Source: a virus. Taken from it: a stretch of 64,000 nt of DNA. The stretch is taken from the IMG/VR virus record IMGVR_UViG_3300034691_000040, positions 32,001 to 96,000 of that record. One strand, written 5' to 3'. The first letter of the stretch is position 1. Every line of letters starts with the position of its first letter. Below the pieces are notes generated by a model. The model was not told the DNA's origin and searched no databases. It saw only the letters and a program-made list of their open reading frames with translations. Positions 1-62,502 of the stretch are shown here, piece after piece. Position numbers and translations under genes: made by a program.

Positions 1-40
1 CCCCGGCCAATGGCCGGGGTGTATGCTACTTCTTTTTTTT
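1..40. terminator. Hairpin-TATG family member (left end truncated)
   Basis: CCCCGGCC-AAT-GGCCGGGG then TGTATGCTACTTCTTTTTTTT. Confidence 0.75.
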
Positions 41-41
41 G

Positions 42-248
42 TTACAAGGTGCCGTTATCGCGGGCGATGATGTCTTCCACCTCAACATTGATACCGAGGT
101 TTGAAAGATACTCTACCGCTTCACGTTTGGCGTGCAGTTCAGAATGAAAGTTCTGACCCTGAAACAAAAGCTTTCCTTCATGAGCGAAGCTGTAATGTGG
201 ACGCCCACTCCAACATCCGCCTACGTTTAACACATGCTCAGTCTTCAT
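42..248 (-). CDS. Small hypothetical protein (68 aa)
   Basis: ORF directly downstream of dnaB on the same strand, preceded by a GGGG purine tract and ending just before the hairpin at 1-25. No recognisable motif. Confidence 0.55.
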   Translation of the reverse strand: MKTEHVLNVGGCWSGRPHYSFAHEGKLLFQGQNFHSELHAKREAVEYLSNLGINVEVEDIIARDNGTL

Positions 249-259
249 GGTAAACCCCC

Positions 260-1807
260 TTATTCATCAAAGTCGCTGAAATCACGTCCTTGCTCACCAC
301 CTGCAAGACGACCACCCACTTTCTTGTAGGAGATATCTTCAGTGCTGAACAGATCGTATTTGAAACCGATCATACCCAGTTCAAGGAACCGCAGTGCAAA
401 CCGTTTATGGTCTTCGTTGGTTGCCCCCAACTTACGGTGTTTGCCCCACTGAACTTCTTGCCATGTCACGCCTGCATGGACACGTTTGGCAATGAAGTAC
501 TCAAAGTCAAATTCTGTGTCGAGCTTCTTACAGCCTTCGTAGTACCCCTTACCTACCAACCTGGCTAGATAGTCATCAGGATACATCCGCGCTTCTTCCT
601 TGGCCTGCGTGGAGAGCTGGTGGGCGGTATAATGGAAGATGTTGTTAGGTGAAGTGAAGTGACGCGTGTAACGATGTACGCCTTGGACCTCATCACCTGC
701 GGTTTGAACTGGAATACCTTGCTTACCCATGAGGTTAGCGTAGTCCAAACCAGCCGAGATGATTTCGTAGCCTTCTTCTTGATAACTGCGAAGCGATTCG
801 ATGTAATCGGTGTAAGGTTGACCGCCTGTAAATTCTTGAAACTTAACTTTGAAACCACGTTCTTGAAGTCGGTCACGAACGTAAGTAGCCATCTCGATTG
901 GCGAAAGACCACGGATGTCGATTGGGCGTTCCCAGTTGTACTCCTGCTGTTTGAGCATGATGTACAGTTTCTGGAATACCAGCTCAAGCTTATCTTCAAT
1001 CGTTGTGTAAACGTGAAGAGGGATCTTGGTCTCATCGAACAACACTGGACTGTTGTAGCAGCACATCGACACCAGGAAGTCCAGCAGGTTGCCTGACTTG
1101 TTCTGCCCTGGTAGTGCGCTGACGTTAAGCCACTCACCACGACGGTAACCATCTTGGTCACCGGTCATCCGGTTGAAAGCTTTAATAGCGTGCTTGAGGA
1201 TGGACTTAGGGTCAATGGCGGTTTGCGCCAAGTTAAAGACCTCGGCCATCGACTCCAAATCATCGACGTCAATAGAGCGCGCAATTGCAGCAGCACGCTT
1301 CTTATCGCCCAATGACAAGTTCTGCAGCTTCATGACAATTTCGTTACGAAACTCCATGACGCTTTTAATACTGTCGCGTTCAAACGCAAGACGACGACTG
1401 GCTTTTCTGATCAGTGCTTCAAACTCTTGCACTGCCGAAAAGGACATCAGTTCGTGACTGAACTCTTCGTACTTATCTTTGGCCGCCTGCGGATCGTCAA
1501 CTAAAAGTAAAGTCTTACAAAATAGATCATATAGACGATCATTATCCCCCGTGGCGATACGCACACGGGTCATTAGGTCATCCAAGTCCATGGGTTTTTC
1601 AGAACCACGGTGCTTTAACCAGATCAGCAATGCGCGTAGCTTCAGCAGAGATGACTTCTCAGTGTTGACTAGCTGACGCTCATCTGAAATTTGAACGTGG
1701 GCTACAGCGCTTTCCAATACGTTATGAAGCGCATCTTCGTTTATATTGCAGTGGCTCGCGTAATACGCAGCGCCGATAGCTTTCGCTAGGAGTAGCTTGA
1801 TTTCCAT
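260..1807 (-). CDS. dnaB: DnaB-like replicative helicase (phiKZ gp118-like)
   Basis: 515 aa. Walker A-like ALPGQNKSG, Walker B-like LDYANL and TAHQLS (DnaB H3/H4-like). Lies divergently just before the capsid block, as in phiKZ-like phages. Confidence 0.88.
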   Translation of the reverse strand: MEIKLLLAKAIGAAYYASHCNINEDALHNVLESAVAHVQISDERQLVNTEKSSLLKLRALLIWLKHRGSEKPMDLDDLMTRVRIATGDNDRLYDLFCKTLLLVDDPQAAKDKYEEFSHELMSFSAVQEFEALIRKASRRLAFERDSIKSVMEFRNEIVMKLQNLSLGDKKRAAAIARSIDVDDLESMAEVFNLAQTAIDPKSILKHAIKAFNRMTGDQDGYRRGEWLNVSALPGQNKSGNLLDFLVSMCCYNSPVLFDETKIPLHVYTTIEDKLELVFQKLYIMLKQQEYNWERPIDIRGLSPIEMATYVRDRLQERGFKVKFQEFTGGQPYTDYIESLRSYQEEGYEIISAGLDYANLMGKQGIPVQTAGDEVQGVHRYTRHFTSPNNIFHYTAHQLSTQAKEEARMYPDDYLARLVGKGYYEGCKKLDTEFDFEYFIAKRVHAGVTWQEVQWGKHRKLGATNEDHKRFALRFLELGMIGFKYDLFSTEDISYKKVGGRLAGGEQGRDFSDFDE

Positions 1808-1842
1808 ACCGCCTCACAGAAGGCTTTAACAGGATTCACATA

Positions 1843-2391
1843 ATGGACAAACCCATTGAGTTGCGGTTCATCCCACTGTGGTTGAGTAAGGTGGTGTCGT
1901 ACTACAACACCGACCCAAAAGAATTCGAAAGCATAGTATCAAGCCACGACCAAAAGTTGTTTAAATTGGCCAACCATTTGCTTCGTTCTAAACTTAAACT
2001 GTTGGGGATTACCGATTATGTTTTCCCTGCAGTGGATGTCGAAGAAGGGTTTGATACTGATGAAGCGTTGTTCGCGCTTTACGGAAACAACGAGGACGGC
2101 CACAAACTGGCTGAGTATACCCTCAAGAATTTCGTAATTGTACCCGATAAGTATGATGGCATCTTGCTGATTGAGAAGCCCGCCGGTGCTGAAGAGAAGG
2201 AATTGATTTATGAGCTGTTGTTAGCTCTGGCTCTTTACCGTGGGAAAGAGGTTGCTTATAGCTCTGACCTGTTCAAACAATATCTGGTTGCCGTGAATAA
2301 AAACTACGGCAGCGGCAGTAGCGCTGATCATTTCCATGAGCACCTTAAAGCAGCACTGGCTAAAGCCCGTGCCGAAGATGCTGATGACTAA
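1843..2391 (+). CDS. Conserved hypothetical protein, possibly a head protein (phiKZ gp119 position)
   Basis: 182 aa ORF with AGGA RBS, between helicase and major capsid gene. Function inferred from position only. Confidence 0.55.
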   Translation: MDKPIELRFIPLWLSKVVSYYNTDPKEFESIVSSHDQKLFKLANHLLRSKLKLLGITDYVFPAVDVEEGFDTDEALFALYGNNEDGHKLAEYTLKNFVIVPDKYDGILLIEKPAGAEEKELIYELLLALALYRGKEVAYSSDLFKQYLVAVNKNYGSGSSADHFHEHLKAALAKARAEDADD

Positions 2392-2540
2392 AAAGAGCAG
2401 TGCTGTAAAAGTGTTATGTGTAAATCGCCTAGTGGGTCGTAGGTCTGCCTTTAGTAGTCGACTACTTTGGGAATCGGCGCAGTCCTAAAAACAAAGCTTT
2501 GTAATTACGACTATCTGGTAGTCATTTTGGAGCACCACGT

Positions 2541-4820
2541 ATGAGTCTCATCCGCATCAACAAGGAACAATACGTTACCAAGTCCGGCCTCGACGCCAAC
2601 GCTTTGGTCACCCACGTCAACGGCGGCAGCGGCTACAGCGTTGAAGGCAAGGAGCTGGTTTCCTCGCTCAAAGACGGCAGCTTCGAAGGCAAGATCCAAC
2701 TCGGCACCATCGCCGATAAACTGAAGTCGACCCTGAGCTTCGAAGGCGCTGCTGTCTCCGCCGACGGCAAGCCTGATTACAGCTTCAACTCGCGTCAAGC
2801 CGGTCTGGCCTCCGCTTCCCTGATCATGGCCTTCGCCGCCGATCCTGCTGCTTACCAGCGCGCCTGCATCTCCTTCGAGCAGAAAGCTCTGCCAGAAGGT
2901 TCGAGCATCGCCAACGCCACCGGCCTGGAACACGACTCGATCTCCGAGTTCTACTCCAAGGAATCCTTCGACAACCAAAACCTGGTTGACTCGTTGTTCC
3001 TCTCGGTTGGCCTGAACTACAAAATCGCCCGCCAAGGCCCAGCAATGGACATGATGTACCGTCCACTGCCGATGACCCCGGACCAAGGCGCGTTCGACAT
3101 CGAGATCCCTTGCCTGTACGTTCAAAACAACGTCAAGCACGCTCAAGATGGCAGCCCATCCGACTTCGGCCTGCGCCGTGTACTCGACGCCGCGATCGAC
3201 CACGAAATCCTGAACGACAACGCTACAGCCGTAATCCCAGGCTATAACGATGCCACCAAGGAAAACTTCGTCGAAACCGCAGTGGTTGCACCGTTCGAAA
3301 AAACCGAAGGCCGTCGCGTCGTAACGACCAGCGCCCTGAAAGTGAACCGGACCATCAACCTGTTCGGCCTGGGCAACGTGGACAACATCCAACGCGTTGG
3401 TCAAGCGGATTACTCCGAAGCTCTCGACCGTAACATCGGCGTGGCCTCGGTGTTCCTGCGTCTGGGTAGCGATACCCTGGTTGTTGATACCCGCATGGCT
3501 CCGTACAGCCGTTTCTACAAAGGTCCAGAACAAGGCGGCCGTTCGGTCAAGCTGTCCTTCCCTGTGACCCTGCTGGAACTGAACAAAGATAGCATGAACT
3601 ACCTGGGTGAAGCCCTGTCGGCTCCGGTGTTCGGCATCATTGCCAACGGCAAGTACACCGTGCGCTGCAAGTTCACCCTGAACGGTGATGGCGACGTTGA
3701 ACGTGGTACCGTGAGCGTCAACCCTTCGCAAGTCGAAGTGATGTCGATCTACGACGAACTGGGCGGCGCTGTGTCCCTGACCGGCACCGTTGGTCTGAGC
3801 ATCGTGAACGGCCTGCAAGCCATCGTTGTTTCCGGCTGGTATCCTGATGCCCGCCTGACCAACAGCAACCACCGTTACCTGGGTCTGCAACTGAACACCC
3901 GTCCGGTGCGTGAGCGTCTGCTCAGCCGTACTCGTGCTCCGTTCTTCGTTCCTTACCCACTGGGTGAAGAGCGCGACCAAACCGTTCTGGATCAGTTGAC
4001 CTACGTCGTTGGCCAATACACCAACAACGAAGCCATCGGTACCATGATCGGTTACCACGAACGCACCATGCGGCTCACCAACGGCGGCCTGCGTGGCAAC
4101 CTGACCATGGGCGACTTCGAGCTGAACTCCAAGCCGATCGAAGGTATCAGCCGCTGGTTGATCAACCCGTACGTCGTCGAGCTGAACGTTGACTTCCGTA
4201 ACGCTCAGTCGCTGGAAACCAGCAACAACGTCGAGAACGCCTGCGAAACCCTGTTCAACGTGCTGCGCTCTGCCGCCTTCGACGGCCTGCAACGTTCCAA
4301 CTACGAAACCGTGTGCCGGTTCGTGGATGGTGGCGAAGTGGCCAACAAATGGCGCCTGGCGATCGTTACCAGCCCGAAAATCAAGCGCTTCCTGACCCTG
4401 CAAGGCGACAGCCGTACCCTGGGTGCGGATCTGCCATTCCAGCTGGAAAGCGACATCGACAACCGCATGAACGGCAAGCTCTACATGGGCCTGGTCCGCG
4501 ACGGCGATGGTTTCGACCCAATGTCCAACGGCATCATGCTGTTGACTCCGACAATGGTTACCACCATCACCGCTACCCGCGACAACTCGCCGCGTAAAGA
4601 AGCAGTGGTTCAACCACGTTTCCAACACTACCAAATCCTGCCGTGGCTGATCAAAGTCAACGTGTTCGGCGTGGACGAACTGTTGGAATCCACCCTGCCT
4701 TTTCGTGTCGAAAACAAGCCGGTTGCAGCTTTCGGTGGTGATGCCATCGTCCCAGCTCCAGTCACCACTACCGCAGTTGCACCAGTGAATGGCGCAGCTG
4801 ATAGCGGTGCCGGCGCGTAA
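2541..4820 (+). CDS. Major capsid protein precursor (phiKZ gp120-like)
   Basis: 759 aa, GGAG RBS and very strong C/G-ending codon bias. N-terminal propeptide carries repeated S/G-x-E motifs (SVE35, SFE49, SFE68, SFE113, GLE130, SKE141). Size and position between dnaB and the nvRNAP subunit match the family. Confidence 0.9.
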   Translation: MSLIRINKEQYVTKSGLDANALVTHVNGGSGYSVEGKELVSSLKDGSFEGKIQLGTIADKLKSTLSFEGAAVSADGKPDYSFNSRQAGLASASLIMAFAADPAAYQRACISFEQKALPEGSSIANATGLEHDSISEFYSKESFDNQNLVDSLFLSVGLNYKIARQGPAMDMMYRPLPMTPDQGAFDIEIPCLYVQNNVKHAQDGSPSDFGLRRVLDAAIDHEILNDNATAVIPGYNDATKENFVETAVVAPFEKTEGRRVVTTSALKVNRTINLFGLGNVDNIQRVGQADYSEALDRNIGVASVFLRLGSDTLVVDTRMAPYSRFYKGPEQGGRSVKLSFPVTLLELNKDSMNYLGEALSAPVFGIIANGKYTVRCKFTLNGDGDVERGTVSVNPSQVEVMSIYDELGGAVSLTGTVGLSIVNGLQAIVVSGWYPDARLTNSNHRYLGLQLNTRPVRERLLSRTRAPFFVPYPLGEERDQTVLDQLTYVVGQYTNNEAIGTMIGYHERTMRLTNGGLRGNLTMGDFELNSKPIEGISRWLINPYVVELNVDFRNAQSLETSNNVENACETLFNVLRSAAFDGLQRSNYETVCRFVDGGEVANKWRLAIVTSPKIKRFLTLQGDSRTLGADLPFQLESDIDNRMNGKLYMGLVRDGDGFDPMSNGIMLLTPTMVTTITATRDNSPRKEAVVQPRFQHYQILPWLIKVNVFGVDELLESTLPFRVENKPVAAFGGDAIVPAPVTTTAVAPVNGAADSGAGA

Positions 4821-4850
4821 CTGAGCAATCAGTGAGCGGTAGGTAGTCAA

Positions 4851-4881
4851 CATAGAGCCCGGCGCAATGCCGGGCTCTATG
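4851..4881 (+). terminator. Hairpin-TATG family member after the capsid gene
   Basis: CATAGAGCCCGGC-GCAAT-GCCGGGCTCTATG, followed by CCGTAA. Confidence 0.8.
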
Positions 4882-4999
4882 CCGTAACTATTCATTTTAT
4901 TGCTCAACACGATTACAGCAATACATTACTATTTAGTAGAGCGGAAAGAATAAAAGGGACACTCCAACTAGAGTGAAAATTAACTAGGGGCCATTACCT

Positions 5000-6115
5000 A
5001 TGACGTCAAAAGATCATCGGGTAAGTGTGTTGGATACTTGTTCCTATTCGCCGCGTTATGGGGGGTTCGCCTTAACGCACGATTCCAGCAACACTTATTC
5101 GAAGACCGTAAGGTACGTTAATAATACCAAACAAGAAGTCGACGTTAAAGAACGTAGTGGTGTGGTCGTGGCGCTTGCGCCGAATCCGTACCAGCAAACG
5201 CGTGTTGAATCAATCGAGATTGAGGTTGAGTGGCGCATGACCAATCAGTGTTTCATGGAAACAGCTGATCGGTTAGCGGAAGGTCATCCAGGTGACCCAC
5301 TACTTAAGGTCGTGATTGAAGCGTTTGATAACCGCAATAAGCGTGGTGGTAAAGAGACTGAGACATCTTCTTTGGCCCTAAGCATTAGCTTTCCGCTCGA
5401 AGACTTGCGCAAGGCAGGTGGTTCAGTTTATCTTGAAGAGTTAGACATTACTTTAGGCATGCCTATTATGCCAGGTAGTCGAAAAATCAACCATCCGTTC
5501 GAGCCGCGTGAACGTGTGAAGAAATCTTTCGCAAGTTCGGTTCCCTTCGTGACGAATGAAACATTCTTGTTCTCCATGAAGGCAATTAATAATGATCAAG
5601 TGGCTAAAAACCACGATCGTTTTATGCTGCTTGGTAGTCAGGTGTACCGAGTACCGGTGGAGCGAGACCCGCACCATCAGAACGGTATCCACATCGTCAG
5701 ACGGCGCAATGCTGATAGTGATCCTCCAGACGTAGGTACTGTAGTCGAGGAACACATGACGTTTGAGGAGGCTGATAAACGATTTAGGCTTTACGATACT
5801 GTTGAAATGGCCCGCAAGATGGGCGATCCTGAAGTGCACTTTAAGCTCGAACTTGCAGAGATGGGTCGAGCGCAAAAGATCGAAGAGATTGCACAGAAAC
5901 GAGTGGATGCTGAAGATGCTGCTGTAATCACTGCGCGCCGGTTAGATCTGGAACGAGAGAGGTTAGAGATGGCAACGGCAAAAGCCCGTGAAGACTTAGC
6001 CAAAGACAGGGTGAGGAACTTTGGCGACTGGGTAGGTCTGTGTGGCAAGTTCTTATTGGTGGCATTAGGGGCGCTTACATCGCTTGCGAAGTTGAGTACC
6101 TTAAAACCAGTTTAA
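5000..6115 (+). CDS. Conserved hypothetical protein with C-terminal coiled coil and hydrophobic tail
   Basis: 371 aa, GGGG RBS. E/K/R-rich helix followed by the hydrophobic segment WVGLCGKFLLVALGALTSLA. Confidence 0.65.
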   Translation: MTSKDHRVSVLDTCSYSPRYGGFALTHDSSNTYSKTVRYVNNTKQEVDVKERSGVVVALAPNPYQQTRVESIEIEVEWRMTNQCFMETADRLAEGHPGDPLLKVVIEAFDNRNKRGGKETETSSLALSISFPLEDLRKAGGSVYLEELDITLGMPIMPGSRKINHPFEPRERVKKSFASSVPFVTNETFLFSMKAINNDQVAKNHDRFMLLGSQVYRVPVERDPHHQNGIHIVRRRNADSDPPDVGTVVEEHMTFEEADKRFRLYDTVEMARKMGDPEVHFKLELAEMGRAQKIEEIAQKRVDAEDAAVITARRLDLERERLEMATAKAREDLAKDRVRNFGDWVGLCGKFLLVALGALTSLAKLSTLKPV

Positions 6116-6126
6116 ATAGGCCCAGC

Positions 6127-7770
6127 ATGGATATTGAGTGGTTCAACGATTTACAAGCGGACAGGCCCAAGTTCAACCAAGACATCATCGATGGTATTGC
6201 GTATAAGGAACTCAAGAAGGCTGAAGACCGCGTAGTCAATGTCATTCATTGCGCGGAACCTAGCTTTCCTGATAAGTTCGAGTTCTTGGGTGCTTCTGTT
6301 TGTGGACCACGGGAAACGTTTCAAGTCATCGCCGGCGGGTTAACCAAATCCAACCGGATGCCACCTACCGTGGATCTGGCCATCACCGATGCTAAGCTGG
6401 TAAAGTTCCAGTTCGCGTTTGATGACCGGGAATTATATCCTCGGTATTTCTACGTGCCCTATAGTCGCCTCGGTGGCTTCATGGGCATTGCAGGCAACCA
6501 GTTCCTGATCAGTGCAGTCTTGGCAGACCCATGCTTTAGCGTGGGCACTGACCATGTCTTCCTGCGTGTGAACCGGGCGCCGATGACGTTCAAGCTTGTT
6601 GATACGACCATGCGTATTGATGGCGTGTTAGCCAGTCGGGACATCCCGTACAGTTGGCTTCACCACAAAGGGGCCTCTAACAAGACCTCTGAAAGTGATG
6701 TATTGCAGTTAGGGCATGTTGTCACCACGTTACCGCATTATTTGTTCTGCAAGTACGGCCTGCGCGAAGCTTTCAAGAAGTTCTGCAAAGTCGACGTCAT
6801 CATTCAGCACGAAGACGAACCTGTAGATACAAAAGAATACGTGGTGTTCTCAAGCCAGAAGGTAAACAAGCCACGCACTCTGAAAATGAAGGCTGACTTG
6901 TACAAACTGATAGCATCGCCCATGGTGCTGTTGGTGCCTCGTAAGAAACAGTCGGAGTTGGTGAATCAGTTTGCAGCTGCGTTCTTCTACATCGTCGACC
7001 ACTTCCCAGAAGCACGGGAGGTTGAAGACCTGATGGGGGATGAGCTGTGGAAAGTATGGCTGGGGTATGTGTTGTTCGGCGATCAGCTGGGACGGCACAA
7101 GTTGGTTGAGAACGTTGAGAACCACCTTGTCAGAGGTATTGACGAGTATGTGGATCATGACTGTCGGCAGATGCTGTACGATGAGGAAAACCTCATCATC
7201 AACGACATCTACGAGCTGTTCATCTACTTGATCAACAACATCAAGGGGATGATTCAGAACAGTGAGAAAGATATCGCTAGCATGTTCGGTAAGCGCTTAA
7301 CTGTCGCGCCGTATGTGCTACGCGATATCACCAGTCAGGTCATGCGGTGTTTGTTTGAAATCACAAACAACCGCAAGAAGGTGTTGAAGTTCGATGACTA
7401 TAACAAGATCCTTGGTAAGTTCTTCAGACACACTGAAGTGTTCAATCTGAGAAAGACCAATGAGAAACGGTTCATGTCGTCTGTATCGACGCCTGGAGAT
7501 AACCTTCTCTTCAAACTCACAACCAAGATTGTTAAGCAAGCCCACACCTCAGGTAGCAAGAAGGCGCCTAGCGTTAACGTGAATGATCCTTCAAGCTGGC
7601 TGCACTATTCGTCTCTTGAGGCGGGTAACTACGGCATGCTACCTAAGCACGGACCCCTTGCAAACAATACCATCAGCCCAACCGTCAAACTGGATGAGAA
7701 CAACACCATCGTCGAGAAAGAACACCTCAAAGCTACAAACGCCTACGTTAACTACGTTATTCGCCGTTAA
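6127..7770 (+). CDS. Non-virion RNA polymerase beta subunit, N-terminal fragment (phiKZ gp123-like)
   Basis: About 547 aa from the ATG at 6127; the ORF-track start at 6040 overlaps the upstream gene. RpoB-like segments (YFYVPY...GNQFLISAVLAD, C-terminal NNTISP) and position two genes after the capsid gene. Confidence 0.72.
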   Translation: MDIEWFNDLQADRPKFNQDIIDGIAYKELKKAEDRVVNVIHCAEPSFPDKFEFLGASVCGPRETFQVIAGGLTKSNRMPPTVDLAITDAKLVKFQFAFDDRELYPRYFYVPYSRLGGFMGIAGNQFLISAVLADPCFSVGTDHVFLRVNRAPMTFKLVDTTMRIDGVLASRDIPYSWLHHKGASNKTSESDVLQLGHVVTTLPHYLFCKYGLREAFKKFCKVDVIIQHEDEPVDTKEYVVFSSQKVNKPRTLKMKADLYKLIASPMVLLVPRKKQSELVNQFAAAFFYIVDHFPEAREVEDLMGDELWKVWLGYVLFGDQLGRHKLVENVENHLVRGIDEYVDHDCRQMLYDEENLIINDIYELFIYLINNIKGMIQNSEKDIASMFGKRLTVAPYVLRDITSQVMRCLFEITNNRKKVLKFDDYNKILGKFFRHTEVFNLRKTNEKRFMSSVSTPGDNLLFKLTTKIVKQAHTSGSKKAPSVNVNDPSSWLHYSSLEAGNYGMLPKHGPLANNTISPTVKLDENNTIVEKEHLKATNAYVNYVIRR

Positions 7771-7796
7771 AAAACCGCCCGTTCCCTGGAGTGCCT

Positions 7797-9659
7797 ATGT
7801 ATAATGGTGGAGAGGACCGTCGATTAGTCGACTATGTCTTCAAGAGTTGCGCCGACCTGATTGATCGAAACGCACGCCAAAGTGATTTGCGTAACGCTTA
7901 CGCGGACATGATGGCGTCAAACCAATGGGTGAACCGTGACATCGACGGTTTGGTCAACGCTATCGTTGAAGCCCTGCCTGCGCTTGAGCGCCTATTTGCT
8001 CGCGGTAATGAGCAGTTGGCCGATTGGATCGACCAGGCCATTTCGAGTATGGTGGATGGTCACTTCGCCGGCATCATCTTGAAGTCTAAGGTGGCTAACG
8101 ATCTTGACCGTAACACTTACGAAGAAATGCGCCGTGCGGCCAATGGCTTTATCGATGTGTGCAAGACGGCTCAACGTGGTGGTCGTGACATTGGCCGCGG
8201 TGATGACCGCACACCTGCGCGAGCCGTGAACGACATCGGCGCTGTCGGTAATTACCGAGGTGGCGGTGAACGTGGCAACGAGAAGGCTTCGCTGGATGAC
8301 GGCTGGTTGGAAATTGCCCGTGCTAAGCAGGGCGTGACCGATGTAGTCGAACATGTGGAAGACCGGCCTGCTTCGCCACGCTATGTTGAAGAACAGGCTC
8401 GGCAGACGCCGCTGTACCGCGAACCTGATCGTCCAGACACTGTCATCGAAGGGCCTGATTACACCAAGGCCGATCCATGGCGTGAATTCTGGCGGCAAGG
8501 CGAGCACTGGCAGATTGCCCACCATTCCAAATGGAAGCTGACAGTCGATCCAGATGCTGACATCGACGATGGCATTAAAGCAATTCCGTCGTTTTACAAC
8601 ATCAACACCCATCTCAAATATTACGTCAAGAATGAAAGCGGCGAAGTCCGTGAGGAGTTAATCGAAGTGAATGACGATAACAGATACCAAGCTCATCAGC
8701 TGCTCGCATCCGAAGACGAATCGTTCAAACCACCAGTGCGTAGCGCCGGCATGTCTCTGAACCCTCGTAAAGTCCAGCCGGCCGATGACGTGTTGGGTAA
8801 CGATGTTCTCGACACCCCCGCTCCGGCGCCTGACCTTGTGGGTATTCTGGCCACGCTGGATGAAGAAAGCCTCGTTCCAAGCGGTGACAAAACTCTGATT
8901 ACTGACAGCCTGTACGCGTCGGTATTCAGTGTCCGTGCAAAAATGATCCGTGAGAATGCGCCGACCAGCGTAGAACTCTCCGTCATGCGAACGCCAGTAT
9001 TGGTGAAGTCGATTGACCAGACCGAACTGATCAACAAGGTATTCGAAGCCCCAACCATGATGGCCGCGGCCAACGCCATGAATGAGCAGAAGCATCTGTT
9101 CGAGCCGAATTTGTGGAATGTTCTGAACGACCGTATTACCAGCAAGTTCCATCATGCCACTCGTTACGCGTTTAGCTACGACGGCCTGAGCAGCAAAGTA
9201 AAATTCGCCCAACACTTCGACAAGGTTCTGCAGCACGTCGAGGGCAAACGCGGTAAAGAATGGGCGGCATCGTATGCTTCTCGTGTGAAATACGTTCTGG
9301 CGTCCGCCTGCGGACACTTGAATGCTGAAGATTTGTCCGACGGTTTGTCGGGCTTGGGTGATCTGACAGGCATCAACGCGGTGGTCTTCTCAGACTACCA
9401 GGTTGTTGTCGCGTTGGATTACACCCTGGACCAATTGGGATTGGGTAAGGCACTTATCGACAGTCCAATGGGTCTGTCCGTATCGGGGTCGGAGCATCCG
9501 CGTCTTCACGCTGCGTTGCTGCGCGTGTACAAGAAGCTGGACGACACCTATGCGGCGATCCACATTCGCGTCGTGTTGTCGACTTCGGATAATCAGCTGG
9601 TTGAGATCGTGCCGTACAGCGTCCGCACTTCGTCCTTCGTGCTGGCTCTGCTTAACTAA
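7797..9659 (+). CDS. Conserved hypothetical protein (about 620 aa)
   Basis: GGAG at 7788-7791 precedes the ATG at 7797. Long ORF with coding-like codon bias, co-directional with the nvRNAP subunit gene. Confidence 0.7.
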   Translation: MYNGGEDRRLVDYVFKSCADLIDRNARQSDLRNAYADMMASNQWVNRDIDGLVNAIVEALPALERLFARGNEQLADWIDQAISSMVDGHFAGIILKSKVANDLDRNTYEEMRRAANGFIDVCKTAQRGGRDIGRGDDRTPARAVNDIGAVGNYRGGGERGNEKASLDDGWLEIARAKQGVTDVVEHVEDRPASPRYVEEQARQTPLYREPDRPDTVIEGPDYTKADPWREFWRQGEHWQIAHHSKWKLTVDPDADIDDGIKAIPSFYNINTHLKYYVKNESGEVREELIEVNDDNRYQAHQLLASEDESFKPPVRSAGMSLNPRKVQPADDVLGNDVLDTPAPAPDLVGILATLDEESLVPSGDKTLITDSLYASVFSVRAKMIRENAPTSVELSVMRTPVLVKSIDQTELINKVFEAPTMMAAANAMNEQKHLFEPNLWNVLNDRITSKFHHATRYAFSYDGLSSKVKFAQHFDKVLQHVEGKRGKEWAASYASRVKYVLASACGHLNAEDLSDGLSGLGDLTGINAVVFSDYQVVVALDYTLDQLGLGKALIDSPMGLSVSGSEHPRLHAALLRVYKKLDDTYAAIHIRVVLSTSDNQLVEIVPYSVRTSSFVLALLN

Positions 9660-9688
9660 CTGACTTCCGCTCTACAAGCCTGAAGTCG

Positions 9689-9791
9689 GCAACGTAACGA
9701 CCGTGCTAGCACGGTGTAGGTCGAGTCCGTCGTCACTAATGTGATTACGGCAGGTTGCGGGATGTCACAAATCCCGCAGTCTTGTTTTTTT
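9689..9791 (+). promoter_or_regulatory. Structured leader (three-way junction) overlapping an intrinsic terminator; riboswitch/attenuator-like
   Basis: GCAAC 9689-93 pairs with GTTGC 9754-58 and encloses two hairpins. The same GTTGC lies within the terminator stem 9753-63/9771-81, which is followed by TTGTTTTTTTT. Confidence 0.45.
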
Positions 9792-9806
9792 TGTTCCGAG
9801 GACGCT

Positions 9807-10442
9807 ATGAACATCATTGAACAACTTGCGTTTCAAGACACCGGTGGCGAGTCATTTGAAGCCGCTAAGGTGGAGTATGAAATTGAGATCTACCTTGAAG
9901 GTTTTGATATCGAGGAGGTGAAGGCTAAGGCTTCGTCTTACGAGGTTCAAGAGCAATGGGGTATCTACGTTCCAAAGACTGAGCAAAACGCCTCAGGCGG
10001 CTCTATGCGAGTCCGTAGGACCGATACCACAGAGGTCGGGAGTGTGTTTGTTCACACCACCAAGCTTGAACGTAAAGGTGCCGGTAAACCTGAGCATGAA
10101 GTAGCGGCTCATGAAGACCTGTTTGACATGTACAAGTTGATGGCCGATCAGGGTTTGATCAAGACACGTTACAACGTTCCTGCTGAATTGGCTAATGGGA
10201 CTAAATACGTTCTTGAAGTCGACGTGTTCTACAACAAGTTAGGTGAGTTGGTTCCGTGGTGTAAGATCGACGCTGAGTTTCCAGAAGGCGCTGATGTTAA
10301 GCTGACCAAGGAAGATATTCCTTTCAGTTACACGGACATCATCATCTGCACCCCTGAACAGAAGGGCGAAGATAAGGCACTGGCTAAACGCATCGGTGCT
10401 CTGTATGAAAAGTATTTCCGTACACCCAATATCGCGGTTTGA
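9807..10442 (+). CDS. CYTH / triphosphate tunnel metalloenzyme domain protein
   Basis: GAGG RBS then ATG at 9807. Ordered CYTH motifs: EIEIY (ExExK-like), MRVRR, TTK, EHEV, KTRY, EVDVF, DAEF. Confidence 0.75.
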   Translation: MNIIEQLAFQDTGGESFEAAKVEYEIEIYLEGFDIEEVKAKASSYEVQEQWGIYVPKTEQNASGGSMRVRRTDTTEVGSVFVHTTKLERKGAGKPEHEVAAHEDLFDMYKLMADQGLIKTRYNVPAELANGTKYVLEVDVFYNKLGELVPWCKIDAEFPEGADVKLTKEDIPFSYTDIIICTPEQKGEDKALAKRIGALYEKYFRTPNIAV

Positions 10443-10452
10443 ATGAAGACAG

Positions 10453-10484
10453 CATATAGCCCGGCCAAACGGCCGGGCTATATG
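10453..10484. terminator. Bidirectional hairpin-TATG family member
   Basis: CATATAGCCCGGCC-AAAC-GGCCGGGCTATATG between convergent genes. Confidence 0.8.
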
Positions 10485-10501
10485 ACGTTACCCAACGGAT
10501 A

Positions 10502-10939
10502 TCAGTTACCGGACAGCAACGATGCCAAGACTTTAAACATCTCAACAATGTCGGCAGCTGCCGCTCCACGCAAAGCCATCATGATCGTGACACCAGCCGC
10601 AACGAACCCCAACCCACCCAGCATAACCTGATGGAAGGCTGTTGCATTCATTGGCCCCAAAGATGGGACCGGTAACGGTAGTGGCACAGGCACAGGTGAG
10701 GGCATTGGGGCATTGGCCGGGAACGGAACACTATCAAGGCTTGCGCCGTAGATCATGTCCTTTGTACCCGCATCCAACGACTCAATTGCTAAACGTATCT
10801 CGGCAGCTTGCGCTGTATTTGGATCTAACTGACTGGCCTGTCCAATGAATCCATTCACCAGGCCTACTAAGGTCCCTTCCCATGGGAATCCTACCGCCGG
10901 GTTCTTTTCCATCAACGTAAGTGCATCTTTAACGATCAT
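10502..10939 (-). CDS. Membrane protein with Pro-rich linker and C-terminal hydrophobic helices
   Basis: 145 aa. PVPVPLPLPVP linker followed by VMLGGLGFVAAGVTIMMAL. Confidence 0.6.
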   Translation of the reverse strand: MIVKDALTLMEKNPAVGFPWEGTLVGLVNGFIGQASQLDPNTAQAAEIRLAIESLDAGTKDMIYGASLDSVPFPANAPMPSPVPVPLPLPVPSLGPMNATAFHQVMLGGLGFVAAGVTIMMALRGAAAADIVEMFKVLASLLSGN

Positions 10940-10963
10940 GGGAACCCCCGGTTATCAATCTGT

Positions 10964-11608
10964 CTAGTTCATTCCTCTCGCAGGCAATGTTAGGGCAAAC
11001 TGTTCAGCTTTGCCACTTCTCAACCAAAATGCATTCAAGCTAACTCGTGTCCCAACGGCGTGCGCTACGGCAATCGCATCGACCGCGTGTTCGTCAAACC
11101 TTTCTATCGACAATCCATTGTCAAACACAATGCTTTTGTTAATACCAATCATTTCACGAATGTGTTCTTTACTATTGCCGTACTGACCAACAGGACACAC
11201 TGCTTTTTTTGCACTGCCTGGAGCAACCTTTTCAAATTCCAAAGTCGTACAATAGTTGAAAGCTGTTTCTGCCAATCCATTCATTGCCGTTGTAAGCGCA
11301 GCAAACGATTGAGCGTGAAGATGTTGAAACGGCGATTCGCAACCAATTACATCAGGGTCAAATTCAGTAAGCACCTCCCAGAAGAACGTTGAAATGACAT
11401 CCAGTCTGGCGTGCATCTTTCCACGGGCATCTAACCTACCTTCGTGTCGGGTGTACGCCGTCTTACTGGCCGTGAGTGTTTCAGCATGAACAACTTTGGA
11501 AATACCCGTGATGAGGTGATGATCGATGACGGCTACCCCGACAGTATCGGTACCGTTGTCGACACCCAATACGCGGTAAATGAACTTGTCGTCTGTAAGC
11601 TCGATCAT
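10964..11608 (-). CDS. ruvC: RuvC-family Holliday junction resolvase
   Basis: RuvC catalytic pattern: VLGVDNGTDTVGVA (D), CESPF (E), KK near helix, DEHAVDAIAVA (DxxD). Confidence 0.87.
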   Translation of the reverse strand: MIELTDDKFIYRVLGVDNGTDTVGVAVIDHHLITGISKVVHAETLTASKTAYTRHEGRLDARGKMHARLDVISTFFWEVLTEFDPDVIGCESPFQHLHAQSFAALTTAMNGLAETAFNYCTTLEFEKVAPGSAKKAVCPVGQYGNSKEHIREMIGINKSIVFDNGLSIERFDEHAVDAIAVAHAVGTRVSLNAFWLRSGKAEQFALTLPARGMN

Positions 11609-11615
11609 AACACAC

Positions 11616-11639
11616 CTACGTCCTTTTTCAAGGACGTAG
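11616..11639 (-). promoter_or_regulatory. GAAA-tetraloop hairpin overlapping the ruvC ribosome-binding site
   Basis: Minus strand CTACGTCCTT-GAAA-AAGGACGTAG-GTGTGTT-ATG. Confidence 0.55.
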
Positions 11640-11657
11640 CTCCTTAACTAACTGAGA

Positions 11658-12533
11658 CTAGGGAATAACCTTCAGCGTTGGGATTGACGCAGTGCCCAGC
11701 AGTGGAACTTGGTTACCGATATCGAATCGGATGTTCAAGGTCTGGTCATTCATGTACACCGCTTTGTAGTCAGCGGCGAAGCAGTAAACCTGAGTGGCGA
11801 TCGACTCAAGGAAGTTGACCTGGCCTTGTGTCGAAGTAACCTGGATGGTGCGGTCAGCGCCGGTGCACAGAGAGAACTCGGAGATGATCGCATAACGTTC
11901 ATCGCCGCCGTTCATGATCTTAGCCACGTTGACGTACTCGGCGACATCGTTCTCGCTCAGAGGTACTTCAAAGATAGCTTTGATCGCAATCTTCACATCA
12001 GAGGCAGTAACCGCACCGGCGACTGGTAGCGTGATGGGGTCTGGATACAGGTTTGAGGTGTCCGGTACGAATGGTTCTTCTACGGTCTGTCCGTCTTCGG
12101 TGGTCATCTTCACCATTTCGACGTTGACTTCTTCCGGGTTGATTTCGATCCGCAGACCGTAATACGCGAAATATTCAACGCCGCCGATATTGATCTGCAG
12201 ACGCAGCGCATACCGTGCACGTTGTTCCAGCGTCAGGTCATTGTCGATGGTGCGCAGACAGAAAGGCACTGGGCCAAACAATGATCCGTCGGTAGCCATG
12301 TGGTTCTGCGGACTGGTCAGGGCGATGCCGTTGTTACCAGTGACGCCGACATGACCTTTGTTACCGGCCATCAGGATACCCAACTTGACCCGCTCTGTAA
12401 GCGTGGGCACTGCCGAAGGTTCGATGTTCAACCGTTCGTTCATAGTCGAGTGATTATCAATAACCGGCGTTTTACCGATCAGCATGTGGATGAGCAACTT
12501 TGCGCCGTAGGCTGTGGCTTGTACCGTATTCAT
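11658..12533 (-). CDS. Virion structural (baseplate-region) protein
   Basis: 291 aa, last structural gene of a tightly packed minus-strand operon. GNKGH and VPFCLR...YFAYY segments resemble phiKZ-family structural proteins. Confidence 0.6.
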   Translation of the reverse strand: MNTVQATAYGAKLLIHMLIGKTPVIDNHSTMNERLNIEPSAVPTLTERVKLGILMAGNKGHVGVTGNNGIALTSPQNHMATDGSLFGPVPFCLRTIDNDLTLEQRARYALRLQINIGGVEYFAYYGLRIEINPEEVNVEMVKMTTEDGQTVEEPFVPDTSNLYPDPITLPVAGAVTASDVKIAIKAIFEVPLSENDVAEYVNVAKIMNGGDERYAIISEFSLCTGADRTIQVTSTQGQVNFLESIATQVYCFAADYKAVYMNDQTLNIRFDIGNQVPLLGTASIPTLKVIP

Positions 12534-12542
12534 GAAAAATCC

Positions 12543-13583
12543 TTAACTGTTAAAGAGTGGTAATACAGAGGCCTGGTTGTACGGATTATTACCAGGGGTG
12601 TCGCTGCTGCTGTACTGATACCCGATCTTGATGATACCGGTCAGGTTCGTGCACAGCGCCCCAAGCTCAATCGCCACAACAAAGTTATACCCGGCGTTTT
12701 CAAGAGTTTGATCCTTAGAGACAAACCCATTGTAAATTACCTTAGCGCCGAACAGGTTGAACTCGGATGGGGTTTGTGTAGCGACCCACTTATCCTTGGT
12801 CAATGTCGCCAGCAACGTCGGTAACTGCCAAGCCACATCCAGCAGATTATCGACCTTCATTCCATAAAGCATGGCCTCAACAGCACGACGCTGATAGTGC
12901 TGTGGAAACACTTCACGGGTAACATACAACTCACCTTTCGGGATCAGAAGATCGACCTGAGGTACGTTCATGTTTCCATCCGCGTAGTAGGTCCGAAGGT
13001 CCAACAGCGAATCAATCGAAATACCCAACGATTCTACAGCCCGCCGAGTATAGATCTGCAGCTCACCGAAAAAGATCAGGTGGGTCTGTTTAAACCGCAG
13101 CGTGTAGTTACGGTTTTCCAGATACGCGGGTACGGGTTCTTGCGGAACGGGTTCGCCGTTACTGCTTTCTGCTTCAAACCCATTGACCGTTACATTCCTT
13201 GTAGCGTCAGGAAGTGACCGCGTGATCAGTTCCAGCTGTGCAAACTCGGGTTCAATTAAGATCCCATACTGCTGGTAGATGGCATTGTAGATATCGATGT
13301 CGGTATAGCCACCCACGTAAATGACCACCGGTTGTCCTTTAAGGAACACCGAGGGTTCTACGCGGTAATACGCCATGATCTGTTTTTCATCACCCCAGCC
13401 GTTCAGGGGTGAAAAGCCAACCATTATTTCAGTCAGGCCATGTTCATTCATGGTGCTAGGTGCGCCAAACTCTAACTGGTCTGGATGCAGATCACGGTTA
13501 TTGTGGTCATTGATGTAATCGACCAGCAAGTCTTTACTTTTCTTACCGTAGCGCCCCAATCGAGCATCTGGCCGATGTGACAT
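12543..13583 (-). CDS. Virion structural protein, baseplate/tail repeat-domain family
   Basis: 346 aa. Shares a Y-x-R...(W/F/Y)-x-G domain with the two adjacent upstream genes; 1-nt overlap with its neighbour. Confidence 0.6.
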   Translation of the reverse strand: MSHRPDARLGRYGKKSKDLLVDYINDHNNRDLHPDQLEFGAPSTMNEHGLTEIMVGFSPLNGWGDEKQIMAYYRVEPSVFLKGQPVVIYVGGYTDIDIYNAIYQQYGILIEPEFAQLELITRSLPDATRNVTVNGFEAESSNGEPVPQEPVPAYLENRNYTLRFKQTHLIFFGELQIYTRRAVESLGISIDSLLDLRTYYADGNMNVPQVDLLIPKGELYVTREVFPQHYQRRAVEAMLYGMKVDNLLDVAWQLPTLLATLTKDKWVATQTPSEFNLFGAKVIYNGFVSKDQTLENAGYNFVVAIELGALCTNLTGIIKIGYQYSSSDTPGNNPYNQASVLPLFNS

Positions 13584-14194: not shown

Positions 14195-14202
14195 TTAAAG
14201 AC

Positions 14203-15156: not shown

Positions 15157-15172
15157 CTCGCCTCCCTACTCT

Positions 15173-21369: not shown

Positions 21370-21378
21370 GTCGCTAAA

Positions 21379-21406
21379 GCACACCGGCACGAAGCCGGTG
21401 TGTATG
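21379..21406 (+). terminator. Hairpin-TATG family member
   Basis: CACACCGGC-ACGAA-GCCGGTGTG then TATGCCGCAT. Confidence 0.72.
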
Positions 21407-22697: not shown

Positions 22698-22743
22698 CAT
22701 ACACCCCCGGCATTAGCCGGGGGTGTATGTCTATTCTTTTTTT
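22698..22743. terminator. Bidirectional hairpin-TATG family member
   Basis: CATACACCCCCGGC-ATTA-GCCGGGGGTGTATG then TCTATTCTTTTTTT. Confidence 0.8.
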
Positions 22744-26852: not shown

Positions 26853-26873
26853 CGCCACCGGCTGCCGGTGGCG
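26853..26873 (-). terminator. Intrinsic-type hairpin after the adhesin gene
   Basis: CGCCACCGG-(3 nt)-CCGGTGGCG, followed on the minus strand by TTACTTCTTT; no TATG. Confidence 0.6.
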
Positions 26874-30396: not shown

Positions 30397-30432
30397 GCAT
30401 AGCGCCGCAGGCCATTGCCTGCGGCGCTATGC
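30397..30432. terminator. Bidirectional hairpin-TATG family member
   Basis: GCATAGCGCCGCAGGC-CATT-GCCTGCGGCGCTATGC between convergent genes. Confidence 0.8.
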
Positions 30433-34841: not shown

Positions 34842-34890
34842 CATACACCCCGGTCATTGCGACCGGGGTGTATGTCTGCTTCTTTTCTTT
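34842..34890. terminator. Bidirectional hairpin-TATG family member
   Basis: CATACACCCCGGTC-ATTGC-GACCGGGGTGTATG then TCTGCTTCTTTTCTTT. Confidence 0.8.
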
Positions 34891-39884: not shown

Positions 39885-39919
39885 GCATATACGCCCGGCA
39901 TTGAGCCGGGCGTATATGC
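39885..39919. terminator. Bidirectional hairpin-TATG family member
   Basis: GCATATACGCCCGGC-ATTGA-GCCGGGCGTATATGC between convergent genes. Confidence 0.8.
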
Positions 39920-46612: not shown

Positions 46613-46657
46613 CGCCGACCGGGGAAACCTGGTCGGCGTATGCCGCATTCTTTTTTT
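46613..46657 (+). terminator. Hairpin-TATG family member
   Basis: CGCCGACCGGG-GAAA-CCTGGTCGGCG then TATGCCGCATTCTTTTTTT. Confidence 0.78.
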
Positions 46658-46688
46658 GTTTATCATGTGAACGTTACTGAGGATTTAG

Positions 46689-47702: not shown

Positions 47703-47735
47703 CATAGAGCCCGGCCGCAATGGCCGGGCTCTATG
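47703..47735. terminator. Bidirectional hairpin-TATG family member
   Basis: CATAGAGCCCGGCC-GCAAT-GGCCGGGCTCTATG between convergent genes; nearly identical to 4851-4881. Confidence 0.8.
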
Positions 47736-49703: not shown

Positions 49704-49735
49704 AGCGAACTCCTCTTGGGTTAAGCGAAAGAGGT

Positions 49736-49755
49736 GGGGGCGGTTTCCCACCCCC
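49736..49755 (-). terminator. GAAA-tetraloop hairpin after the tape measure gene (weak terminator or stabiliser)
   Basis: Minus strand GGGGGTGG-GAAA-CCGCCCCC then ACCTCTTT. Confidence 0.5.
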
Positions 49756-61100: not shown

Positions 61101-62456
61101 CGTCGGGCGATGGTGGCAAGGACTCGTTTGTACAAACGCACTGACATGGGCCTGATCACTGAAGGTACCGTGGACAGTGGCGACGTGGGCATCATCGCTT
61201 ACATGCCGCAGAACGCTAACCTGACAACAGTGCGTGGTACCGTTCGCCAATACAATCCGAAAACCGATGGTGCTGCTACTATCATGTCGACTCCAGCTTT
61301 GCTGGGCGTAGGCGCTGATGGTGACGATCCAAAACGTATCGGGTTTAGTGCTATCCAGCATGGTCACGGTATTGCCACTGAGAACTATGAAGTGGCTCCT
61401 GGCTTGACTGAAATGGAAGCGATGATTGCTTCGCGGTCAGGCCCTGAGTTCGCTCAGGTTGCAAGCGGTAAAGGCAAGGTTACTGAAATCGGTCCTCAGC
61501 ACATTGCGGTTGAATACGCAAATGGTGAAATCTTCCGTGCTCCATTGGGAATGATCCACACCAACGCTGAAGGTACGCTGTATCCAAACACACTGGTTAC
61601 CGGTCTTGTTGTCGGCGATACAGTGGAACAGTTTGATGTACTGACCTATAATCCGGGCTTCTTTAAAGTGAGTCCGTTTAATCCTCGGCGTGTAAACTAC
61701 GCTGGGTCATGTTTGGCGCGTGTTGCCATCCGTGAGGCCACGTATACGTTGGAAGACTCCTGCTCTCTTTCTGAAGCATTCGCTCGCCGAATGGTCACGA
61801 AGGTAGCGAAGCCTAAACCCGTCAATGTCGACTTCCATGATGAAATCGTGGGGCTGGTAAAAGTAGGTCAACGGGTGGATCTTGATACAACGCTATGTAG
61901 CATCGAGGGTAGCGTTTCCTCAGCCGCAGGGTTGTTTGACGATTCCAACATCGATACGCTTAAACTGTTCACCCCGTCCGCACCTAAAGCTAAAACTGTC
62001 GGAGTCGTGTCTAAGATCGAAGTCTTCTACAATGGCGACATTGAAGACATGTCTGAGTCTCTGCAGGTCATCGTGGCTGAATCCGAAAAGGGTCGTCGTC
62101 GATTGGCTAAAGCGTTGGGTGAGGAATACACGTCGGGGTTTGTGGGACGTAATGTGCGAAAGGAAGGGACTAACCTTGAGCCACATCGGGCGATGATCTT
62201 GGTTTACATCGACGCCGAAGTCCCAATGGGTATTGCTGACAAGCTGGTAATTGGTAATCAGATGAAGTCGGTGGTCGGCGCTGTACTCTTTGGTGAGAAC
62301 CAAACTGAGTCAGGCGGTCAGGTCGATATTGTCTTTGGTGCTCTTTCTGCGATAAACCGTATTGTGACTGGGTTGTTTACGGGCGGCTCACTCAACACAG
62401 TGGTGCGGGTTATCGGCGAAGAAGCGTTTGCCATGTATTTCGAAGATGCTGCTTAA
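58188..62456 (+). CDS. rpoB: Virion RNA polymerase beta subunit, large N-terminal part (phiKZ gp178-like)
   Basis: 1422 aa. DSGDVGII, ATYTLEDSCSLSE and MGIADKLVIGNQMKSVVG...DIVFG are RpoB-like motifs; acidic insertion. Confidence 0.88.
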   Translation: MAELLAYDRYRLRFTLWKTSQLQAPVVYPIARLQLPKMSVLHFAPADGVTMGPQISDPLMRSVPGVIYIDHVKQYGQPEGNPIRTFSQADTLITQFRQRNRAFRPLRKLDRLETDQRTLVVYNYALLSHMVRYATSFRAGWYMWRNVYAEVMNNINALCEESQRHHFIELPLPEVMPGLGTLRTFSTRQTADVLNSLRDDGSKQVADLFVWAGKLRENSLLSKIKPENYPKVNIIIRRLNGFVVVNLGWLDGLRKSDDPAVKNKGVSYDPAMFQLLLLKFLTTLHQATSPIETDLKNEVVEEPVVEVDVDGVGLDDLELTAEYDELPPSDELDDDDVTIAALEKELEELDLLKQRAIDEAIQYDEDGEKLETKAIDINMLAADKAAKTTGSPIVDKANELAGKGLLTAAEHRRLERISGIFKTLPNPFGGEGTLVDAIEIPQEDIEIKPTVLADASTLIDKSLAVSKTDTFERQYLEKVLRKDIVRCVAAIQKAPVAITSYSINRLTDASNDQEIHSFKITPAVGESSTVSFPLPVVKPDGSFLYNGTKYRMRKQRVDLPIRKLSPVQVGLSSYYGKVFIERSERKNFNYEKWFMGQLIIKALDPEDPNVGKAMLSTVADYLIDVPKMYTSISERIMSMVCGKNQLWFDHKRRVEKFKYTAEQLAFEKKGWALCGQNDQGQALIMDINNMIYRIVPDKQGGSLQEVGTINDLTGITEDTGTPISAIEVKVYSKNIPMGLVLAYLLGFNKLLDLLKVKPRRVLAGARLNLEPHEYAIRFVDESLVFSRKDIVPSLILSGFNLAKDAVRNYSGAMFDGKDVYSAIFDRSGIGSRFLRELDSLDTMFVDPITEDLLKWMKEPTEFTGLLVRATEMLVNAKVDEARKDKDGVVELLERVRGYERIAGMVYENLSKRVREYNARASSGRASIKMNPNDPINMLIKDPTTSPVNNINPIHALREREVITFGGRGGRSRRAMVARTRLYKRTDMGLITEGTVDSGDVGIIAYMPQNANLTTVRGTVRQYNPKTDGAATIMSTPALLGVGADGDDPKRIGFSAIQHGHGIATENYEVAPGLTEMEAMIASRSGPEFAQVASGKGKVTEIGPQHIAVEYANGEIFRAPLGMIHTNAEGTLYPNTLVTGLVVGDTVEQFDVLTYNPGFFKVSPFNPRRVNYAGSCLARVAIREATYTLEDSCSLSEAFARRMVTKVAKPKPVNVDFHDEIVGLVKVGQRVDLDTTLCSIEGSVSSAAGLFDDSNIDTLKLFTPSAPKAKTVGVVSKIEVFYNGDIEDMSESLQVIVAESEKGRRRLAKALGEEYTSGFVGRNVRKEGTNLEPHRAMILVYIDAEVPMGIADKLVIGNQMKSVVGAVLFGENQTESGGQVDIVFGALSAINRIVTGLFTGGSLNTVVRVIGEEAFAMYFEDAA

Positions 62457-62469
62457 TTAACCCCCGTGC

Positions 62470-62502
62470 CCCACCTCCAGTTCTGCTGGGGGTGGGTGTA
62501 TG
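62470..62502 (+). terminator. Hairpin-TATG family member after the vRNAP beta gene
   Basis: CCCACCTCCAG-TTCTG-CTGGGGGTGGG then TGTATG. Confidence 0.65.

Follow-up and report, generated by a model that had tools for sequence, protein, structure and literature searches.

The 64,000-nt window analyzed here, bases 32001-96000 of the 126,847-bp viral contig IMGVR_UViG_3300034691_000040 (CheckV completeness about half), contains a dispersed family of G+C-rich hairpins that are followed by the tetramer TATG. Very probably these elements are transcription terminators of a phiKZ-like jumbo phage, that is, a nucleus-forming phage with its own polymerases, and we conclude that the family is this phage's version of the terminator already mapped in phiKZ and not a new terminator–promoter relay. 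Judged by its genes, the source appears to be an uncultured jumbo phage that branches deeply among the phiKZ-like phages and encodes polymerases of its own: homology searches found a phiKZ-family major head protein gene and, as in a phiKZ-type multisubunit RNA polymerase, both an RNA polymerase beta-family gene and a homolog of phiKZ gp123 (Table 1). The capsid protein is only about 25% identical to that of phiKZ and 35% identical to its best match among cultured phages, from Pseudomonas phage pPa_SNUABM_DT01 (DT01), and a near-identity DNA search of cultured phages found no match to the window. Positions marked "g" or "contig" follow the numbering of the whole 126.8-kb contig; all others are in window numbering.

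Hairpins followed by TATG

The initial annotation had listed 12 such hairpins in the window, and all 12 lie where it placed them, each followed by TATG (Table 1). Those at convergent junctions (10453, 22698, 30397, 34842, 39885 and 47703) all read CATA...TATG and thus carry the motif on both strands, and the hairpin at position 1 does the same once the upstream contig sequence is read (g31995-32025). At four of the five tandem plus-strand junctions (20319, 21379, 46613 and 62470) TATG is found on the 3′ side only, and at the fifth, 4851, on both sides. We confirmed the longer repeated strings that had been reported (TATGCCGTAA twice, TATGCCGCAT twice and TATGCTG six times), as well as the absence of TATG from the two minus-strand hairpins named as exceptions, at 26853 and 49736. 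The stem-loops are G+C-rich, their stems of 7-16 bp containing 5-12 G-C pairs; fold energies range from -13 to -33 kcal/mol, and the cores are similar across the family, with CCCGGC beside GCAAT or ATTGC loops.

It had also been proposed that the genome and its relatives be scanned for this combination against shuffled DNA. We listed all perfect stems of at least 6 bp in the whole contig and, for a 13-nt interval about every stem's 3′ end, counted the tetramers on both strands. TATG was the top tetramer, present at 43 of 198 sides where 3.1 were expected (13.7-fold); it outranked all 255 others, TTTT and all permutations of its own letters among them, and the runners-up, ATGC and TTAT, are overlaps of it. 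Its enrichment at hairpin flanks spans 13.7- to 21-fold. Nearly all of the TATG-bearing sides belong to intergenic hairpins (41 of 94 sides, vs. 2 of 104 for hairpins inside genes); shuffled intergenic flanks gave 4.9 ± 2.1 such sides, with a maximum of 14 in 2000 trials, and when the rate in hairpin-free intergenic DNA, 3.65 TATG per kb per strand, is taken as background, the binomial P is 7e-34. The succession of hairpin and TATG is confirmed as real and lies far beyond chance.

The conservation extends past the tetramer. Aligned on TATG, 52 tails give the consensus T-N-TATG-Y-Y-G-Y: 39 have T at -2, 48 have Y at +4 and 50 at +5, 35 have G at +6 and 42 have Y at +7. The A and G of TATG are invariant by definition of the set, and sites at which a relaxed hairpin finder had over-extended the stem through TATG were re-anchored. 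The tail follows the direction of the genes: we found it on 24 of the 30 convergent sides and, at tandem junctions, on 20 of 40 sense vs. 8 of 40 antisense sides (P 0.009), and the YYG extension likewise tracks the transcribed sides (34 of 44 vs. 2 of 8, P 0.007). Since YYG is mostly absent from the tandem antisense TATGs, these look like plain stem extension, with CATA pairing with TATG. Such pairing occurs at two-way sites; at one-way sites TATG is unpaired. Four of the 52 tails contain ATG-CCG-TAA, a mini open reading frame of start, proline and stop (window 4878-4886 and 20344-20352; contig 12511 and 103578 (-)); we dropped it as the purpose of the motif because it is too rare.

A second type of tail consists of a pyrimidine run that ends in T7-9 and then G (often GTTAC or GTAC), 8-15 nt past the stem, with or without an intervening TATG (copies in Table 1). 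The same T7-9-G tail stands behind hairpins in Erwinia phage ChrisDB, Vibrio phage pVp-JHP1101 and phiKZ. The T8-G tract may serve as a back-up stop, or it may belong to early promoters, whose upstream part is described as T-rich in phiKZ.

Strand asymmetry of the hairpins

At tandem junctions, the one-way hairpins fold on average 3.0 kcal/mol more stably in sense than in antisense (15 sites favor sense, 2 antisense), and they contain 25 G.U pairs in sense vs. 5 in antisense. Convergent-junction stems are perfect Watson–Crick palindromes and fold equally strongly in either direction. In one-sided hairpins, a UUCG or GNRA loop is on the TATG strand in 9 of 20 cases and on the other strand in 2 of 20. 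The hairpins function as RNA structures with the polarity of transcription, and the pattern fits a mixture of one-way and two-way terminators.

These observations also bear on the idea that the family is a DNA-level element, such as a cruciform, a phage N4-type hairpin promoter, a site of nicking or recombination, or a mobile repeat of the REP type. The dispersal of the family and the similarity of its cores would be in keeping with this, as would the SbcC-like palindrome nuclease that the phage encodes, but strand-specific G.U pairs and UUCG/GNRA loops argue against it, as they fit RNA and not DNA. The elements are, moreover, located at gene 3′ ends, orthologous copies diverge in place by compensating changes and not by insertion, there is no transposase context, and an Rfam search of the window found no family. 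We regard a DNA-level role as scarcely credible.

The compensating changes are seen in two viral contigs whose capsid protein shares 87% identity with the present one; hairpin and TATG are kept there at orthologous junctions while the stems have changed by paired substitutions. The hairpin orthologous to 4851..4881 shows such changes in L005 and L006: the post-capsid core is CCCGGC/GCCGGG in the present phage, and of the two relatives one has CCGGGC/GCCCGG and the other CCGGGGCC/GGCCCCGG.

Correspondence to the phiKZ terminator

In phiKZ, 133 termination sites have been mapped by ONT-cappable-seq, and 61 of them share a conserved motif, a stem-loop followed by a TTAT region (BCCYCCCCHWWDGGGRRGGBYTTATKYYGT), which the authors classed as intrinsic (Putzeys et al., 2024, PMC10914365). 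Phage 201phi2-1 has a closely similar motif (motif A) at 59 sites (PMC11512511). The phiKZ tail, YTTATKYYGT, matches that of the present phage position for position, and the location is also the same: gene 3′ ends, with two-way elements between convergent genes.

We overlaid the published phiKZ starts and ends (bioRxiv supplement of the Putzeys paper) on the phiKZ sequence from 80 to 180 kb. Of 37 mapped 3′ ends (80-168 kb), 14 are at a hairpin with a TATG tail. These 14 all fall between -3 and +3 nt relative to the tail G, with 9 at +1 or +2, which is 6-8 nt past the stem. None of 43 hairpin-tail TATGs in these 100 kb has a mapped start within 3 nt, while 28 of the 53 starts in the same region are at a TATG elsewhere. 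Starts that follow closely behind a terminator use either a separate, second TATG (P049, P054, P075 and P078) or an early or middle promoter just past the tail. With 3′ ends at the tail G and no starts there, the phiKZ data support termination and do not support re-initiation. By analogy, both features should hold in the present uncultured phage as they do in phiKZ.

Enrichment of TATG at hairpin flanks was also found in other cultured phages, of which we sampled 100 kb for phiKZ and 23-45 kb for each of the rest. It was 9.7-fold in phiKZ (41 sides vs. 4.2 expected), 9.3-fold in KpGz_1, 11-fold in DT01, 22-fold in Xoo-sp14 and 7-fold in Ralstonia FLC4-4C. In small samples, it was little or none in Vibrio phage pVp-JHP1101, Salmonella phage SA002 and Erwinia phage ChrisDB, and none in Bacillus phage AR9. 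The late promoter of AR9 is a different motif. When recomputed, the Y-Y-G-Y extension proved common to phiKZ, KpGz_1, DT01 and Xoo-sp14, and the tail TATG persists in genomes of 50-58% G+C with just 2-3 U in the tail. The terminator rule thus holds across several deeply diverged branches of the phiKZ family at very different base composition.

TATG as a promoter core

The same tetramer has a second role in phiKZ, where it forms the late-promoter core, with transcription starting at its G, and is necessary but not sufficient (Yakunina, 2015); a pocket of phiKZ gp123 binds it on the non-template strand (PMC12809450). In the gp123 homolog of the present phage, pocket residues S144, F151, H185, K190, H331 and Q466 are identical, Y406 is replaced by F, and Y399, K158, N398 and S402 are not conserved; the main stacking residues (F151, H185, H331 and, as F, Y406) are thereby retained. 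Hairpin-free TATG is about 3-fold enriched upstream of genes (5.3 per kb in divergent regions vs. 1.6 genome-wide), and from its distribution TATG probably behaves as a start signal too in this phage.

Inside genes, TATG is avoided. On the gene sense strand it is the most depleted of the 256 tetramers, with 194 occurrences vs. 416 in codon shuffles (ratio 0.47, z -14), and CATA is depleted equally (ratio 0.46, z -8.6); rearrangements of the TATG letters are not depleted to the same degree. We rejected restriction-site avoidance as the cause, since the deficit is spread over all 16 flanking contexts and not just CATATG.

Given that TATG is the late-promoter core bound by gp123, it was reasonable for the initial annotation to suggest a terminator–promoter relay, in which transcription stops at the hairpin and a new transcript starts at the G of the same TATG. 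Tandem junctions would then show stop–start expression, and convergent junctions would yield antisense RNA. Besides the promoter core itself, the enrichment of hairpin-free TATG upstream of genes and its avoidance on both strands within them are as expected of a start signal; at least 12 of 19 tandem junctions have the terminator TATG as the sole TATG before the next gene; and in phiKZ a terminator stem precedes two late starts, P049 and P075, by a mere 6 to about 13 nt. Yet with phiKZ as the proxy no mapped start falls within 3 nt of any of the 43 tail TATGs in the 100 kb sampled, the nearby starts being served by their own second TATG; only 4 antisense RNAs with a defined start are reported for the whole of phiKZ; and on most convergent sides the tail is present where a start would yield antisense RNA only. 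We therefore retain the terminator half of that suggestion, a hairpin plus specific tail serving the phage polymerases, which the identity to the phiKZ motif and the 3′ ends mapped at the tail G in phiKZ support, and abandon the fused re-initiation site, which we now consider very improbable. In phiKZ, RNA ends at, or just past, the base at which late starts occur elsewhere, and thus the same four bases mark starts and ends according to context.

The hairpin was likewise rejected as part of P119L, the model late promoter of phiKZ, because P119L lies in a divergent region without a hairpin. The divergent gap that houses P119L in phiKZ is only 35 nt in the present phage. Three promoter-like copies of CTGTAAAAAA followed, after 4-8 nt, by TATGCTG (window 29097-29114 (-); contig 26716-26735 (-) and 106638-106659 (-)) are each in a divergent region and point at a minus-strand gene block, and a weaker copy of this type is upstream of the capsid gene (window 2404-2418 (+)). 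The CTGTAAAAAA motif resembles the A-rich element of phiKZ middle promoters. Two divergent-region TATGs (contig 7739 (-) and 106609 (+)) share TATGGTTAGCTGT and two others (contig 7710 and 8751) share TATGTCCCCA; these groups may be promoter subclasses.

How the tail may be read

We propose that, as the polymerase leaves a gene, its RNA would fold into the G+C-rich hairpin and the transcript would stop within the tail T-N-TATG-Y-Y-G, at the first or second base after the G. Between tandem genes the element is one-way; between convergent genes it is a perfect palindrome, CATA-stem-loop-stem-TATG, and would stop transcription from both sides.

It is possible, but on balance doubtful, that these are just ordinary intrinsic terminators in which TATG is uninformative, a degenerate U-rich tract combined with a 4-bp A/T extension of the stem base. 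The position of the phiKZ 3′ ends relative to the stem is the usual geometry, the phiKZ authors chose this class, CATA and TATG do pair at two-way sites, and the tandem antisense TATGs look like stem extension, most of them having no YYG. A U run that starts 0-2 nt from the stem, as in a bacterial intrinsic terminator, is however not found here, the first 8 nt of the tails having 2-4 T, and a consensus scan that requires 5 T in 8 returned 19 sites in window 1-20000 vs. 18.5 in shuffles, with 4851 and 10453 unflagged. An uninformative TATG would also be at odds with its rank above TTTT and the rearrangements of its own letters at hairpin flanks (the A and G being fixed by definition only in the tail set), with its unpaired state at one-way sites and with the U-poor tails of the 50-58% G+C genomes. 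Because the tail persists at 37% to 58% G+C, where a plain U-tract does not, we infer that the invariant A-T-G is read sequence-specifically, and the reader would most likely be the polymerase itself. We found no discussion, in the literature searched, of a polymerase reading TATG during termination or of a terminator tail that contains the late-promoter core.

A more specific version, which we think unlikely, is that the same non-template TATG, held in the same gp123-type pocket, marks both the start and the stop for the non-virion polymerase. Where no hairpin precedes the TATG, the enzyme would initiate at its G; where a hairpin has just folded 6 nt upstream, TATG binding would hold the enzyme until the hairpin releases the transcript. 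Genes would then avoid TATG on both strands because accidental starts and accidental stops are both selected against.

Several points weigh against the proposed terminators and the reading of TATG in them. To our knowledge, sequence-specific reading of TATG by a polymerase during termination has never been demonstrated. The gp123 pocket of phiKZ is described as incomplete in the transcribing complex (PMC12809450). Strand specificity of TATG, as claimed in the initial annotation, stands as a tendency but not as a law, since three hairpins outside the window (g306, g11024 and g20595) have TATG on the non-transcribed side only. About half of the tandem-junction hairpins from the relaxed search have no TATG, and some of them have a T-tract tail instead; TATG is therefore not obligatory. 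Terminator function in the present phage would be carried over from phiKZ, by analogy, between phages with the low capsid identity given above. Finally, the published mapping has a resolution of about 2 nt, and termination and 3′ processing are indistinguishable in it.

This last point leaves some room for a role of hairpin plus UAUGYYG as an RNA 3′-end tag: a processing site, or a site at which a phage RNA-binding protein would act in stability or nuclear export, and not the point of polymerase release. The phage nucleus separates transcription from translation, an mRNA-binding export factor, ChmC, is reported for this phage family, and the tail is conserved beyond the need of a hybrid-weakening tract. 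On the other hand, the mapped ends are inside the tail, so most of the YYG would be absent from the mature RNA, and no protein is known to bind the tail. We consider a 3′-end tag quite improbable, and prefer termination.

Other features of the contig

The hairpins and the genes named in the text are collected in Table 1. The window has a G+C content of 50%. Its gene order from 260 to 7770 (a helicase-sized minus-strand gene, a small virion gene, the capsid gene, one further gene and the gp123 homolog) matches that of phiKZ, DT01, Xoo-sp14 and FLC4-4C; in this comparison, the capsid gene and the gp123 homolog are the only genes identified by search. Along with the SbcC-like subunit of a palindrome-specific nuclease, the genome is rich in long perfect palindromes, with stems of 13-16 bp. 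Two stretches (window 43887-44591 and contig 4673-5614) received no gene call from a simple caller and contain several TATGs, which occur on both strands; genes that are small or unusual may be encoded there.

Table 1. Putative terminators, other hairpins, second-class tails and selected genes. Coordinates are in window numbering unless marked as contig.
Feature	Position	Strand	Remarks
Putative two-way terminator at window start	1..25	.	full stem contig 31995-32025, CATA...TATG; TATG 22-25; T8-G tract 34-42
Putative terminator 3′ of major head protein gene	4851..4881	+	13-bp stem, CATA...TATG; tail TATGCCGTAA
Putative two-way terminator, convergent genes	10453..10484	.	tails TATGACG (+), TATGCTG (-)
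Putative one-way terminator, UUCG loop	20320..20347	+	G.U pairs in sense only; tail TTTATGCCGTAA
Putative one-way terminator	21377..21406	+	tail TATGCCGCAT
Putative two-way terminator, convergent genes	22698..22729	.	tails TATGTCT then T8 (+), TATGCTG (-)
Putative two-way terminator	30397..30432	.	16-bp stem, GCATA...TATGC
Putative two-way terminator, convergent genes	34842..34874	.	
Putative two-way terminator	39885..39919	.	tails TATGCTG (+), TATGCCGTA (-)
Putative one-way terminator, GAAA loop	46613..46642	+	G.U pairs in sense only; tail TATGCCGCAT then T7-G
Putative two-way terminator, convergent genes	47703..47735	.	
Putative one-way terminator 3′ of RNA polymerase beta-like gene (1422 amino acids)	62470..62502	+	four sense G.U pairs; tail GTGTATGTAC
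Hairpin without TATG	26853..26873	-	pyrimidine-/T-rich tail (TTACTTCTTTAT), second tail class
Hairpin without TATG	49731..49754	-	
T7-9-G tail copies	34-42, 9786-9794, 22737-22744, 46651-46658; contig 342, 11936, 101861, 103559, 123415		
phiKZ-family major head protein gene	2541-4820		homology search
phiKZ gp123 homolog	6127-7770	+	26% identity, E 8e-56
SbcC-like subunit of palindrome-specific nuclease	31653-34088	+	
Multisubunit RNA polymerase beta-like gene, 1422 amino acids	58188-62456		homology search (RNA polymerase beta family)

Comparison with known systems

The terminator signal itself is already described in phiKZ. Like the phiKZ terminator and motif A of 201phi2-1, the elements of the present phage have a G+C-rich stem-loop followed by (Y)T-TAT-G/T-Y-Y-G-T, lie downstream of genes and are two-way at convergent genes; those phages too have their own multisubunit polymerases, and in them RNA 3′ ends have been mapped at the motif by ONT-cappable-seq. 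They differ in that the phiKZ stems are of the CCYCCCC type and the present ones of the CCCGGC type. The present genome is 50% G+C, so its tail is much less U-rich than that of phiKZ, and the fourth base is G rather than G or T. The present phage is also uncultured and distant, its capsid protein being at most 35% identical to that of any cultured phage. What is mildly new is that the terminator tail contains the late-promoter core and that TATG is the most avoided tetramer in genes, depleted on both strands. For uncultured phiKZ-like phages, a hairpin plus T-N-TATG-YYG, one-way or two-way, offers a reliable rule for finding the ends of transcription units.

Bacterial intrinsic (Rho-independent) terminators share with these elements the RNA hairpin, the one-way and two-way forms, the stable tetraloops and release 6-8 nt past the stem. 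In place of their stem-adjacent U-tract, however, the phage elements have a TATG-YYG box, and any T8 run comes 8-15 nt further on.

With the phiKZ late promoter, the tail has in common the same four non-template-strand bases, with G at or next to the position of the polymerase active site; unlike that promoter, it has a hairpin upstream, RNA ends at it rather than starting at the G, and no mapped phiKZ starts are found at tails in the 100 kb sampled. If the polymerase does read TATG in both contexts, this bears on how a four-base promoter can be specific. Short specific sequences also help to stop other viral polymerases, as in the T7 class II signal and the vaccinia U5NU signal, but these act without a hairpin or independently of one, and the enzymes are unrelated.

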